Counted from the stretch's first letter, positions 19,241 through 23,285 are shown. The stretch is 64,000 nt of DNA from Candidatus Helarchaeota archaeon (GCA_029838215.1 JALGVI010000011.1:1-64000), one strand, 5' to 3'. Notes: generated from the letters alone by a model not told the origin. Made by a program: numbers and translations.

Positions 19241-19888
19241 GTGGAAAAATCTGGTATCTCTTTTATCACGGCTGTCGCCAATGATATCTACGAAAAAGTC
19301 AATGGTGTAATAGAGTCATTCGAAAAAGTTGGAGAAATCCTACCCAACATAATGCAGGAAATAAATGATAATATGACAGCACTATCATCTTCAATTGGTC
19401 AGATGATCGAAGAAACCAATCAAAATCGTAATCTCACGAAAGATATGTTTTCTGAATTGACTGAAAAAGTCATAAATCAAATACAACAAATTCAAGACAA
19501 AAAAGAAGCTGAACTTGATGAAAAAGGATTAAAAGAAACCGTGCAAGTCTTGCAAAACGTTTCAAAAAACCTGAATGACAAGGTGTTTGATATTCAATAC
19601 GCTTTGATTATTGCAGGGATTCACACGATTGTTGACGTTCTAAAAGGATTAATTCAAGCACAACCCACACAACAAGTTCAGCCCGCTTCAGAAGAATCAA
19701 TTGTATTTTCCGATAAAGCTCCAATTCCTGTCAGCGCTTCAGAAACTGGAAAATTAGCTCCGAAAAAACCTGCAAAGCGAAAGAAAGGACGAAGAGCACC
19801 GGGTAAACCAACGCAAAAAACCGTGGGCTCTCATGAGGACGAACTTGAAAAAATGAGACGTAAAAAAAGGCTATTTGGTAACTACTAG
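19241..19888 (+). CDS. Coiled-coil protein with Pro/Lys-rich disordered tail ending RLFGNY (P2)
   Basis: Helical for the first ~140 aa, then a low-complexity tail. Aligns by eye with P4. Confidence 0.78.
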   Translation: MEKSGISFITAVANDIYEKVNGVIESFEKVGEILPNIMQEINDNMTALSSSIGQMIEETNQNRNLTKDMFSELTEKVINQIQQIQDKKEAELDEKGLKETVQVLQNVSKNLNDKVFDIQYALIIAGIHTIVDVLKGLIQAQPTQQVQPASEESIVFSDKAPIPVSASETGKLAPKKPAKRKKGRRAPGKPTQKTVGSHEDELEKMRRKKRLFGNY

Positions 19889-19899
19889 TGATTCTAAAT

Positions 19900-20418
19900 T
19901 CATCCGAATAAATCTGATGGCTTTAATAACGTATCATTTGTTTTATCCTTTTTTCCTGAAGTTTGGAGACTATCTAATTCTTCTTGTGGCGAGACGGAGC
20001 CTTGTGAAACGGGGACTCCTTCGCTTCCTATTGTAGGAATGGGTGCCGCAAGAGGCTCTTCTTTTGTAGTAACTCCTTGGACTGTTTTCGGAGATGAAGT
20101 CACTGCTGGGTGAGGGACTGGAGCAATGGCAACTTGGGTCATCAACTCGCGGACATCCTGTAAAACTCGATTGAGTTCCATTACCTGCATTTGTTTTTGT
20201 GTTTGCTCCATTAGAGTCGAGAACCGGGCCTCTAACTCATTCACTCTTGGGGAAACTGGACCTCCTCCCAAAGGTTTTTTTACGAGTTCTTTAATGGCAT
20301 TTTGATTTTCTGTAATCAATTCGGAGTTTTTCTTGATCTCATCAGCCATTGAGGTAACTTTTGTCAATATTTCTTTTAACACTCGAAGAATTTCTGATTC
20401 CATGACTTTATCTTCCAT
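19900..20418 (-). CDS. Coiled-coil protein with Pro/Ser/Thr tail ending LKPSDLFG (P3)
   Basis: Two helical segments, a disordered linker and a terminal motif shared with P6. Confidence 0.78.
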   Translation of the reverse strand: MEDKVMESEILRVLKEILTKVTSMADEIKKNSELITENQNAIKELVKKPLGGGPVSPRVNELEARFSTLMEQTQKQMQVMELNRVLQDVRELMTQVAIAPVPHPAVTSSPKTVQGVTTKEEPLAAPIPTIGSEGVPVSQGSVSPQEELDSLQTSGKKDKTNDTLLKPSDLFG

Positions 20419-20451
20419 GCCATCGACTCTCCATGATCATTTAACAAGTCA

Positions 20452-21987
20452 CTAAAATTTTTTATATGATTCCAACTTATAAAAATGCTGTTTCTTTTTA
20501 AAAAATTGCATTTTCTTCAAGCGTTGAAATCGCTGTTTGCGGTCTTCGTGAGATGTTCCATCTTGAGTTCGATATATCCACGCATTTAATTCTGGTGGCT
20601 CAATAGAGATGTATTGCACTAAAGGATTATTAAACATGGCTGAACCCTTCTGTAACGTGAATACACTTACGAGAAAATCCTGAATTTCTCTATCATGTGT
20701 TTGTAGAAATTCTAGTGTTTGCGAAAAATCCTCTAAAGTTTCTCCCGGAAATCCAACCATGACGTAGACACCAACTCGAACTCCCATTTCATCCATTTTC
20801 TTGATTATTCTTGAAGCATCATCGAGATCAATGAGCTTATTCATGAGCTTCAATACTCGATGGCTACCCGACTCTAATCCAAAATAACAATATTTTAATC
20901 CATCACGTGAATAATTAACTATCTTTTCATCCGACCAACCCCGAAATTCCGCATTTCCTCCCCATTCTATTGAAATTCCGGTACTTTTCAAGATGTCAAG
21001 TGCCTTTCTAAAAGTCGTCGTAGAATTAAACGAATTATCGGCAAGTGCAATTTCGTTAATCCCCAAGACTGAGTTATAATATTCGATTTCCCTGACTACG
21101 GATGTTGGTTTTTTCACTCTAAAAGGACCCCAGATGCTGTTATCGTTACAAAAAACGCAATTTGATGGACATCCCTTCGAGCAAAAAATTCTTAAACTGG
21201 AAACATTTCGGAAGTCTTGGTTGACCAAATCCAAGGAATTGTATGCTGGAATCGGCAACTCATCTAAGTTTAAAGCAGGAGGACTTTCAGTTTTAATTAA
21301 CGAGCCGTTTGAAAAAAAAGTAATCCCGGGAGCACCTTGAATCTTTAACTTCTCCTTTTTCAGTCGCAAAATATGAAATAATGGTAGTTCTCCTTCATTA
21401 TGATGTATCACTGCATCAATTGAATTCAAACGCGCATAAAAATCACCACGATAGATGTTGCTCGCCTCAGGTCCCCCTAAAATTATTTTGATGTCGGAAT
21501 TTCTCCTCTTCAAACAATTTGCAACATAAATCGAAGCGACCGCATTTCCAACAACAATCGAAAAACCAAATAGATCCGTATCAAATTTCTCCAAGTATTC
21601 AACGTACCTGTCAAGAATGCGAATGGTCTTGTCTTTCTGGTCTTCAAACTTTGTAAAAATCGTTTGGTACAGTTTCGAACAGACTGGACCCAAAGATTCG
21701 ATAAATAATTGTACTTGTTCTCTGGAAAGACCTAACAATTCACGAAAAATAAACCAATTGGCATAACCCCAATTCCCAAACTTGAGCTCCTTCTGATCCT
21801 GAAATTCAGTTGGCAACTTGAAATTCTTGAGATGACCATGATAAAAATCAAAACTACAATCCACGCAATGCAAGCGGAATCCCTTACTTGAAAGAAAGCT
21901 CTGTAAAGAAGCCAACGAAAATGATGGAATGAGGCTATTATATGCCGGCAAGGACGTTAAAACAATATCATATTCCATTTTTGGCAC
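20452..21987 (-). CDS. B12-binding-domain radical SAM protein
   Basis: N-terminal PSFSLASLQSFL...FGFS...KIILGGPE...EGE cobalamin-binding pattern; SKGCPSNCVFC (CxxxCxxC); FGLESGS; MVGFPGET. Confidence 0.92.
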   Translation of the reverse strand: MPKMEYDIVLTSLPAYNSLIPSFSLASLQSFLSSKGFRLHCVDCSFDFYHGHLKNFKLPTEFQDQKELKFGNWGYANWFIFRELLGLSREQVQLFIESLGPVCSKLYQTIFTKFEDQKDKTIRILDRYVEYLEKFDTDLFGFSIVVGNAVASIYVANCLKRRNSDIKIILGGPEASNIYRGDFYARLNSIDAVIHHNEGELPLFHILRLKKEKLKIQGAPGITFFSNGSLIKTESPPALNLDELPIPAYNSLDLVNQDFRNVSSLRIFCSKGCPSNCVFCNDNSIWGPFRVKKPTSVVREIEYYNSVLGINEIALADNSFNSTTTFRKALDILKSTGISIEWGGNAEFRGWSDEKIVNYSRDGLKYCYFGLESGSHRVLKLMNKLIDLDDASRIIKKMDEMGVRVGVYVMVGFPGETLEDFSQTLEFLQTHDREIQDFLVSVFTLQKGSAMFNNPLVQYISIEPPELNAWIYRTQDGTSHEDRKQRFQRLKKMQFFKKKQHFYKLESYKKF

Positions 21988-21995
21988 GGATGTTC

Positions 21996-22322
21996 TTATT
22001 CTCTCTTAATCTTATCTGCTACAGAGAGAATACGCTTCAATGCCGTTAATAAATCTAAGTACCAAAAATTCTCATTTACATTCTCGATGGAATTTAAAAG
22101 AAGCTTTGTATTTTCCCTGTAAGCCTTTAGACCACCTGCTTCCCCAAATCTCTGACCGAGCTGGGATACAGAATCATTGAGAGCCTCCATTGATTTGCTC
22201 AATTTGTTCAATGATTCCACGACGTTATTATTTACTTCATCCAGAGCATTCTGGATCTTGTCCATTCTACCAAAAACATCGTTTAATGCTTCAGTGATAA
22301 AAGGTAAGAGACTTCTACTCAT
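21996..22322 (-). CDS. Small coiled-coil protein (P4), paralog of P2
   Basis: SLLPFITEALNDVF...MEALNDSVSQL versus P2 SGISFITAVANDIY...MTALSSSIGQM. Confidence 0.78.
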   Translation of the reverse strand: MSRSLLPFITEALNDVFGRMDKIQNALDEVNNNVVESLNKLSKSMEALNDSVSQLGQRFGEAGGLKAYRENTKLLLNSIENVNENFWYLDLLTALKRILSVADKIKRE

Positions 22323-22334
22323 TTTATCATCCCA

Positions 22335-22676
22335 TTATTCCGTGTTTTTTTCACTCTGTATTACTTGAACCGTTTCTATGAGCTGATTTAATAATTCTGC
22401 TACTTTTTTCTCTTCGAATTCTGCTTCGAGCCGTTGGCTGATTTTTATAATGCTTTGTTTTGCGGTCTCAATTTCTTGCGTGTGAAAAATGATCTCAAAT
22501 GTTTTAATTAATCGATCAACGCGTCGATCAAATCCAACTAATAAATCATCCATGTTCTCGTTAAACTTTTCAAAAGTGTCTCGTAATAATTGAATTTGTT
22601 CATGTGTCTGATCTAATTTATTTGAAAGCTGCAAAAATAGGTTTTGAATGGCATGAAATTGAGGATCATCACTCAT
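22335..22676 (-). CDS. Small coiled-coil protein (P5)
   Basis: 113 aa heptad-patterned helices; tightly packed in an operon with P6 and P4. Confidence 0.75.
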   Translation of the reverse strand: MSDDPQFHAIQNLFLQLSNKLDQTHEQIQLLRDTFEKFNENMDDLLVGFDRRVDRLIKTFEIIFHTQEIETAKQSIIKISQRLEAEFEEKKVAELLNQLIETVQVIQSEKNTE

Positions 22677-22694
22677 GTTAATTACCTCGTGAAT

Positions 22695-23285
22695 TCAACT
22701 TCCGAAGAACGATGAAGGACGAAGGTTGTGATCCTCCCCATCTTCTTCAGCTTGCTGAGGTGGAACGGCTGGAGCCGTTGAAACTGGTGCGGTACCTTCG
22801 GTGCTACTAGCAGCAGGTGCCGAGGTTGTTTGGGTTGAGCTGGTTGAAGCTGGTGCGGTCTGTGAAGTAGAAGATGCAACGCGTTCAACCACCTTTTCAA
22901 CGACCCTTGGAGCCACAGGCATTGATAAATTCTCAATTCTCCTCACTAACCCCTGAATCGTCAAGATTTGAATGCTTTTTTGCAATTTGTTCAAGATATG
23001 ATCGATGGCGATTTCTATTTCATTTAAATCCTGCAATCCTAATGACTCGATCTCTTCGGTCAGAACCTGTTGCATCTCTGGAATGCTTCTTTGGCTCAAG
23101 ATTGCAAATTCACTGTCGAACTTCTTTTCTAAAGTATCAATTTTTTGCAAGATATTCTTAAAAGTAATGGTCTGGTCTTCAACTTTACGCTCTATTCTTT
23201 GTAACGCCTTTACTGCATCTTCGAGAAGACCTGTTAACATGTTTATGAGCACGGTGTCGCCTTGGGACAACTCAAACATCTCCAT
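22695..23285 (-). CDS. Coiled-coil protein with Ser/Thr/Ala/Pro tail ending LRPSSFFGS (P6)
   Basis: Helical for ~120 aa, then a low-complexity linker and the terminal motif shared with P3. Confidence 0.78.
   Translation of the reverse strand: MEMFELSQGDTVLINMLTGLLEDAVKALQRIERKVEDQTITFKNILQKIDTLEKKFDSEFAILSQRSIPEMQQVLTEEIESLGLQDLNEIEIAIDHILNKLQKSIQILTIQGLVRRIENLSMPVAPRVVEKVVERVASSTSQTAPASTSSTQTTSAPAASSTEGTAPVSTAPAVPPQQAEEDGEDHNLRPSSFFGS

Follow-up and report, generated by a model that had tools for sequence, protein, structure and literature searches.

Eukaryotic cell organisation characteristically relies on recruitment by short linear motifs (SLiMs) located in disordered tails. In ESCRT-III proteins (Snf7/CdvB), which are found in Asgard archaea, a flexible linker joins the hairpin core to a short conserved peptide at the C-terminus, the MIM, that is bound by the MIT domain of Vps4, and paralogs occur with and without this peptide. 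MIM1 is helical and rich in Leu and Arg, and MIM2 is rich in Pro. FtsZ has a C-terminal linker with a peptide binding FtsA, ZipA or SepF, and SSB has an acidic tail; in both, a variable disordered linker tethers a better-conserved terminal peptide. We analysed a stretch of 64,000 nucleotides from a Candidatus Helarchaeota archaeon (GCA_029838215.1 JALGVI010000011.1:1-64000; hereafter the window), which encodes six small proteins, P1 to P6, of three subfamilies, A, B and C. The two A-type proteins, P3 and P6, end in a common peptide placed behind a long Pro/Ser/Thr/Ala-rich linker. The peptide represents a short linear motif that is new, and the Asgard protein family bearing it is undescribed; our literature search found no description of the motif, the A-type family or the gene cluster. 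The architecture parallels those of ESCRT-III with its MIM and of FtsZ with its C-terminal peptide, and the family probably belongs to neither. On balance, and with modest conviction, we regard the tail peptide of the A-type subunits as a tethered docking or regulatory SLiM within a coiled-coil set of A, C and B subunits.

Conservation and specificity of the tail peptide

A preliminary description of the locus proposed that P3 and P6 share the terminal motif L[KR]PSx[LF]FG, and translation of the two open reading frames (ORFs) confirmed this, P3 ending in ...TLLKPSDLFG and P6 in ...HNLRPSSFFGS. Among the 13,669 ORFs of at least 50 residues in this 3.6-Mb genome, the pattern matches P3 and P6 only, whether sought at the C-terminus or anywhere, the composition-based expectation being 0.001 and 0.04, respectively; the match is not due to chance. 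A degenerate DNA pattern for KPSDFF matched one A-type gene in each of five complete or near-complete genomes from the genome families f5 and f6 (families are numbered with the prefix f throughout). Two extra matches were obtained, one in an out-of-frame stretch of 48 codons that is apparently non-coding and the other encoding KPWDFF. The motif is carried by one protein family per genome examined, with two copies in the present genome.

The conservation of the peptide is extreme. Twenty homologs of P6 (33–99% identity) come from metagenome bins of Helarchaeales, Lokiarchaeota and Promethearchaeota. The tail L[IL][KR]PS[ST]FFG[ST], in which P, S, F and F are invariant, is shared by 20 orthologs at 33–67% identity, and the linkers of the P6 orthologs vary in length and sequence and are not alignable. 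Word-based homolog searches with P3 and P2 as queries matched nothing beyond the queries themselves, and the orthologs of both were recovered through synteny; those of P3 end in [LI][LI]KPSDLFG, and seven more P3-type clusters, at 50% identity or less, end in [LIV][KR]PSDLF[GSK]. The A-type profile matched 158 of the 400 Asgard genomes searched, and in f6, the largest family of the Lokiarchaeia class, 123 of 135. The motif ends the encoded protein in 33 of 33 loci (L003-L035), three of which came from a pattern-and-tblastn scan and thirty from a hidden Markov model (HMM) search. The A-type proteins end in HLLKPSDFFGS in f6, RLVRPSDLFGRGY in f21 and RLI[KR]PSDLFRRGY in f20.

When 33 members with 13–66% identity to P6 were aligned, no column of the entire protein was invariant other than the P, S and F of the tail. 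A Leu at the third position ahead of the P is almost invariant as well, and the family's next best-conserved position is a helix-2 Lys (K103, in a 'QKS/QKG' patch). An anchored logo of 59 unique sequences gave the consensus acidic(5-6)-[HR]-L-[LIV]-[KR]-P-S-[DS]-[FL]-F-G, in which the entropy is zero at P, S and F and positions -9 to -5 form the acidic run. When 1.84 billion representative proteins were searched exhaustively with an HMM, only 102 clusters emerged, and the motif is present in most of their proteins that align through the end of the profile. Orthologs retain the motif even where their linkers and much of their helical part have diverged, and the proposal clearly does not fall on the ground named for its rejection, namely loss of the motif from proteins that keep the helices; nor does the motif occur at background frequency. 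One to four residues follow the invariant F in the 59 logo sequences and up to 14 in the representatives, and an exact C-terminal L-F-G ending is found in the P3 type only. These 1–14 trailing residues argue that the peptide itself is recognised, and not the terminal carboxylate.

Linkers of 60–70 residues rich in Pro, Ser, Thr and Ala had been described, in agreement with the 64 residues (59% P/S/T/A) measured in P6 and the 68 residues (43%) in P3. An AlphaFold2 model of the P6 monomer, built on the 20-sequence alignment of its orthologs, is an asymmetric hairpin of two confident helices (residues 8–81 and 87–121) with a predicted local distance difference test (pLDDT) of about 90–98. Residues 125–188 have a pLDDT below 50, and the linker is accordingly predicted to be disordered; the end of the tail reaches only about 52, and the model does not dock the tail onto the hairpin. 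A Foldseek search of the PDB with the P6 model gave no fold match, and an ESM Atlas feature search with P6 returned unnamed archaeal clusters only (best score 0.84). Pfam and NCBIfam searches with the six small proteins and 30 B- and C-type members yielded only sub-threshold coiled-coil matches (NPV_P10, Baculo_PEP_C, FlaC, ArlX, BORCS6 and others).

Two further features of the A-type and A-type-like proteins were observed. The linker, variable elsewhere, contains a second conserved mini-motif, WVDP[HTN]E in f6 and [FH]VP[DE][HE] in f5, at a distance of about 20 residues upstream of the tail motif (L022-L035, L038-L043). A-type-like paralogs of 230–266 residues (P0061, P0073, P0074; P0066, P0077, P0091, P0095; L059:2364-3062) lack the PS[DS]FF tail and end in other conserved peptides, for example G[GE][EP]IEI[ED]TG..D[DE]D or GAWS..I..K.K..GR, and their sequences suggest that tails might have been swapped as modules within the family.

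Three subfamilies and their likeness to described systems

Profile-profile comparison (hhalign) related P3 to P6 as paralogs with a probability of 98% (E 1.8e-13; BLASTP E 6e-4). In the B-type subfamily, P2 was related to P4 at 96.8% and to the 157-residue protein of f20/f21 (f21 compared) at 97.8%, and in the C-type subfamily, P5 was related to P1 at 95.6% and to the 150-residue protein of f20/f21 (f21 compared) at 96.7%. By these profiles, the six proteins form two A-C-B triplets, P6-P5-P4 and P3 with P1-P2. A single A-C-B triplet occurs in the f20/f21 genomes, and an f3 genome has second and third triplets elsewhere; the f5/f6 genomes have a solitary A gene with an unlinked B-C pair.

P2 had been grouped with P3 and P6 on account of its ending, ...RRKKRLFGNY, and a basic linker. 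Both features are present, the linker spanning residues 139–196 (58 residues, 21% K/R), but P2 does not carry the motif. Its tail reads KTH[DE]E..EE..[KR]4-5 and then LFGNY (19856-19885). The tails of P2 orthologs conserve the KTH[DE]E..EE segment and the run of 4–5 basic residues, and not the LFG, the endings being LFGNY, LFGRY, MYGQFRA and MMMKYR; only a hydrophobic-aromatic-Gly core is shared with the tails of P3 and P6. P2 should be kept apart from P3 and P6, from which it differs both in subfamily and in its basic tail, and the common partner that had been proposed for the three tails would hold at most for P3 and P6.

The resemblance to ESCRT-III lies in the hairpin, the flexible linker, the short conserved C-terminal peptide, the paralogs with and without it and the occurrence in Asgard archaea. 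The ESCRT-III core consists of a hairpin and the packed helices alpha3–alpha5, whereas the P6 monomer model has two unequal helices followed by disorder and, as noted, no Foldseek match in the PDB. The monomer model leaves a distant relationship to ESCRT-III possible. Snf7 (PF03357) gave no match at E up to 0.1 in the six small proteins, nor was it among the most frequent families of the 30 B- and C-type members. No Vps4 or MIT gene lies in the cluster, and the tail logo [HR]L[LIV][KR]PS[DS][FL]FG fits neither the MIM1 nor the MIM2 consensus. As in FtsZ and SSB, a variable disordered linker tethers a better-conserved peptide; here, however, the folded part is a coiled-coil hairpin in place of a GTPase or an OB fold, the motif sequence is unrelated, and a single family per genome bears the peptide.

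In its gene context, the locus is reminiscent of BLOC-1/BORC, which act with Arl/Rab GTPases and longin or roadblock proteins, in that small paralogous coiled-coil genes stand together with GTPase and longin- or roadblock-like neighbours. Matches to the BLOC-1/BORC families BORCS6 or KxDL had E-values of 0.008–0.1, far below the gathering scores and among many coiled-coil matches, and the BORCS6 match, sub-threshold in 2–3 of 15 members (E about 0.01–0.02), shows no homology. Our literature search found no report of BLOC-1/BORC-type subunits in Asgard archaea. The Myxococcus MglA module, consisting of MglA, the roadblock protein MglB and RomR, might also be compared, since an MglA-like GTPase flanks the cluster and a roadblock-like neighbour occurs in other lineages; RomR has a disordered linker and a conserved C-terminal segment. 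The helical proteins here, in contrast, are unrelated to known MglA effectors, and the window yielded no homolog of MglB or RomR/RomX.

Several described motifs were compared with the tail and rejected. The PIP box (Q-x-x-[LIM]-x-x-[FY]-[FY]) does not fit, its L/I/M position being the invariant Pro and its Q position a Leu in 55 of the 59 sequences. The HbYX motif of proteasome activators and of the Cdc48/p97 tail needs an exactly C-terminal hydrophobic-Tyr-X, whereas 1–14 residues follow here and the aromatic residue is always Phe. FFAT and GAE-ear motifs, considered for a resemblance, did not fit the logo.

Proposed role of the tail and competing explanations

We propose that the hairpin of the A-type protein would be built into a coiled-coil complex in which the B and C subunits probably take part, and that the fast-evolving disordered linker of about 60 residues would serve as a flexible tether giving reach to the tail. 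The peptide at its end would be a short linear docking motif that captures, or is captured by, one conserved partner, which need not be encoded nearby. From the gene neighbourhoods, we infer that such a complex might be linked to small-GTPase machinery. The docking reading is drawn from a peptide that is more constrained than the fold, tolerates a varying number of trailing residues and always follows an acidic run. As a functional class, tethered C-terminal docking SLiMs are distinguished by a short peptide whose conservation greatly exceeds that of its disordered and variable linker, and this is what the A-type family presents. The docking motif of the preliminary description agrees well with conservation, disorder and uniqueness in P3 and P6 and is well supported as a functional class, and it does not extend to P2.

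A number of points weigh against this proposal. No binding partner was demonstrated by any test made here, and with the motif confined to one family in each genome, the several clients that usually mark a hub-docking motif are missing. The conservation pattern would be identical if the tail acted intramolecularly or within the complex. The adjacency of a GTPase gene is the weaker evidence because Asgard genomes are rich in small GTPases and the link is one of neighbourhood only. The HMM used for retrieval contained the tail columns, so that the homologs are slightly biased toward tail carriers, though the matches also cover the helical region. Complex prediction of the P6 tail (residues 155–196) with the MglA-like GTPase, with residues 215–351 of the coiled-coil protein CC351 and with the 553-residue protein X553 ended in a verdict of 'no answer' (score 0.00), which counts neither for nor against binding.

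An intra-complex role is the least improbable of the alternatives, although we consider it unlikely. The tail might fold back on the A-type hairpin or on the B or C subunits as a regulatory element, for example as a latch that causes autoinhibition in the manner of the ESCRT-III C-terminal region. Confinement of the motif to the A-type family would be expected of such a latch, as would the co-occurrence of the A, B and C families, either as triplets or as an A gene plus a B-C pair, and the K103 patch in helix 2 could be the receptor for the acidic run and the motif. However, the tail is left undocked in the AlphaFold2 monomer, the disordered spacer of about 60 residues exceeds what a latch needs, and the A gene is unlinked from the B-C pair in f5/f6.

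Modification of the tail is a less probable explanation still, and one we would not expect to hold. The peptide would then be a site of C-methylation by the B12-binding radical SAM enzyme whose gene lies between P4 and P3, or a phospho-switch at the Ser/Thr found in place of Asp in the P6-type tail. Synteny of the radical SAM gene with P6-P5-P4 holds for all Helarchaeales-type clusters examined, including one Lokiarchaeota contig, and the nearest NCBIfam models of the enzyme, the RiPP (ribosomally synthesised and post-translationally modified peptide) model ApyD (1e-34), rSAM_ocin_1 (1.7e-29, nearly full length) and the MCR glutamine C-methyltransferase (8e-27), are far below their cut-offs, the closest named relatives being peptide or protein C-methyltransferases. 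The A-type genes beside the enzyme all have S/T where others have D (PS[ST]FF against PSD[FL]F), and S/T at an otherwise acidic position is the appearance that a phospho-switch might be expected to have. Nevertheless, this correlation goes back to one lineage and carries no independent weight, and the f5, f6, f20 and f21 genomes keep the motif without an ortholog of the enzyme, with only generic paralogs at 23–32% identity. In one Helarchaeota genome, the enzyme gene is moreover frameshifted, possibly by an assembly error, while the tails are intact. Since the orthologs are confined to Helarchaeales-type clusters, the enzyme cannot explain the conservation of the motif. That the peptide is a signal for degradation or a small anchor to membrane or nucleic acid, in place of a protein-docking motif, is very improbable: two aromatic or hydrophobic residues next to a basic residue close to the C-terminus could enter a membrane or serve a protease or unfoldase as a recognition site, and the ...DLFG-COOH of P3 has a superficial likeness to hydrophobic-aromatic-X terminal motifs, but the 5–6 acidic residues that always precede the motif disfavour membrane or nucleic-acid binding, the varying distance to the C-terminus (1–14 residues) disfavours carboxylate-dependent readers, and an invariant Pro-Ser is unexpected in a simple hydrophobic anchor.

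If the docking proposal is extended to the whole locus, the A-C-B triplets might constitute an undescribed, Asgard-wide coiled-coil machine regulated by small GTPases and working in tethering, membrane remodelling or the cytoskeleton, an extension that is speculative and, in our estimate, doubtful. The tail, a SLiM of eukaryotic style, would recruit a dedicated effector by the same logic as MIM and MIT in ESCRT-III, the Ser/Thr variant of the P6 type might be switchable by modification, and in Helarchaeales X553, CC351 and the MglA-like GTPase would belong to the machine as well. If true, this would be a prokaryotic case of SLiM-based control of assembly in the lineage ancestral to eukaryotes. 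Here a SLiM-like tail stands out as the best-conserved feature of an uncharacterised family in a recurring three-gene module within neighbourhoods rich in small GTPases. It also offers a cheap handle, a 15-residue peptide, for fishing the partner, and the tail peptide EEEPHLLKPSDFFGS or the P6 or P3 versions could be used as bait; the partner would give access to a cellular system specific to Asgard archaea and beyond the reach of annotation by sequence homology alone.

Gene neighbourhood and candidate partners

The features of the cluster are listed in Table 1. The genes X553, CC351, P6, P5, P4, radical SAM and P3 follow one another in this order on one strand, with gaps of 8–33 nt from P6 to P3. 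The order recurs in a second Helarchaeales genome and on one Lokiarchaeota contig, and partly in families f2 and f3.

Table 1. Coordinates within the window of the small-protein genes, of the parts of P3 and P6 and of the neighbouring genes.
Feature	Position	Strand	Description	Basis
P1 gene	18818-19228	+	C-type, no tail	profile-profile comparison (hhalign)
P2 gene	19241-19888	+	B-type with its own basic tail, 215 aa	translation, hhalign
P3 gene	19900-20418	-	A-type subunit, paralog of P6, 172 aa	ORF translation
P3 C-terminal motif	19903-19932	-	TLLKPSDLFG, residues 163-172, exactly C-terminal	translation, orthologs
P3 linker	19933-20136	-	residues 95-162, P/S/T/A-rich	composition
Radical SAM gene	20452-21987	-	B12-binding radical SAM enzyme, between P4 and P3	Pfam Radical_SAM 1.1e-18 and B12-binding
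P4 gene	21996-22322	-	B-type, no tail	hhalign
P5 gene	22335-22676	-	C-type, no tail	hhalign
P6 gene	22695-23285	-	A-type subunit, 196 aa	ORF translation
P6 C-terminal motif	22698-22730	-	HNLRPSSFFGS, residues 186-196	translation, ortholog conservation
P6 linker, predicted disordered	22731-22922	-	residues 122-185, acidic run at end	composition, pLDDT
P6 helical hairpin, predicted	22923-23264	-	helices 8-81 and 87-121	AlphaFold2
CC351 gene	23432-24487	-	351-aa coiled-coil protein, conserved C-terminal domain	synteny
X553 gene	24517-26178	-	553-aa protein, predicted alpha/beta head and long antiparallel coiled-coil arm	AlphaFold2
803-aa protein gene	26411-28822	+	helical protein	neighbour; distribution differs from motif family
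MglA-like GTPase gene	28833-29450	-	small GTPase, flanks cluster	PDB MglA 3t12, E 7e-24

Of the neighbours that had been suggested as the common partner, the MglA-like GTPase, X553 and CC351, the last with a C-terminal domain that the preliminary description took to be PLD-like, are possible candidates on synteny alone. The GTPase is syntenic in the f1 and f2 clusters (66–81% identity), and the CC351 gene is always directly upstream of P6. The AlphaFold2 model of X553 (mean pLDDT 89.5) has a head made of residues 1–170 and 411–553 and an arm of about 120 residues; the f2 orthologs (377–389 residues) are without the coiled-coil arm. Comparison of the whole model with the PDB by Foldseek and VIA-align found coiled-coil look-alikes only and no convincing relative, the best being an SMC arm (E 3.6e-3, template modelling score 0.13), with Z of at most 10 over residues 234–360.

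The suggestion is disfavoured for the 803-residue helical protein, which had no Pfam or NCBIfam match. It is among the more widely distributed Asgard proteins encountered here, being present in 229 of the 400 Asgard genomes, at about 800 residues throughout. The two sister families f2 and f3, in which it was not found, retain the genes for P6, X553 and the coiled-coil protein (f2 also that for P3), and the 803-residue protein occurs in 76 of the 89 genomes of three families in which the A-type profile matched nothing. On this distribution it was rejected as an obligate partner.

The radical SAM enzyme may modify one of the small helical proteins. Its orthologs are found in Helarchaeales-type clusters only, and the 23–32% identical paralogs were those of five distant motif-carrying genomes; the notion that the tail protein is a RiPP precursor or dedicated substrate of the enzyme was rejected, as the motif does not co-occur with the enzyme across genomes. 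In Helarchaeota LW55_61 (G128; L002:11304-12787, L003), the radical SAM ortholog has one frameshift after about 70 codons with the remaining frame intact, and it is seen in both the NCBI record and the Logan assembly. It may be an assembly error or a recent disruption.

In other lineages, the small-protein genes have different neighbours. A roadblock-like protein, judged from reading its sequence, adjoins the triplet in f20/f21, and in f5/f6 the B-C pair adjoins a TPR-like protein of 290–299 residues. The homolog of the latter in the present genome is a 314-residue protein with TPR/HEAT-like repeats, matched below the Pfam threshold (G000:C128:16429-17373), whose gene overlaps by 4 nt that of a Rab-like GTPase (Ras family, E 8e-48; the pair at G000:C128:16429-17912, L068:4430-5913). 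In genome G142, the B-C pair also adjoins a longin protein of the Fuz/MON1/HPS1 type. After P1-P2, the Lokiarchaeota cluster (L001:14343-15608) and that of LW55_61 (L002:14600-15918) encode a 268-residue zinc-ribbon and coiled-coil protein and a Cys-rich protein of 121–133 residues, neither of which stands at this position in the window. The contig DATKTP010000269.1 (L005/L049), titled 'Candidatus Deferrimicrobium sp.', bears the MglA-like GTPase, X553, CC351, P6, P5, P4 and radical SAM genes. Given this Helarchaeales-type cluster and the Asgard placement of the genome, the name looks mislabelled or the contig mis-binned.

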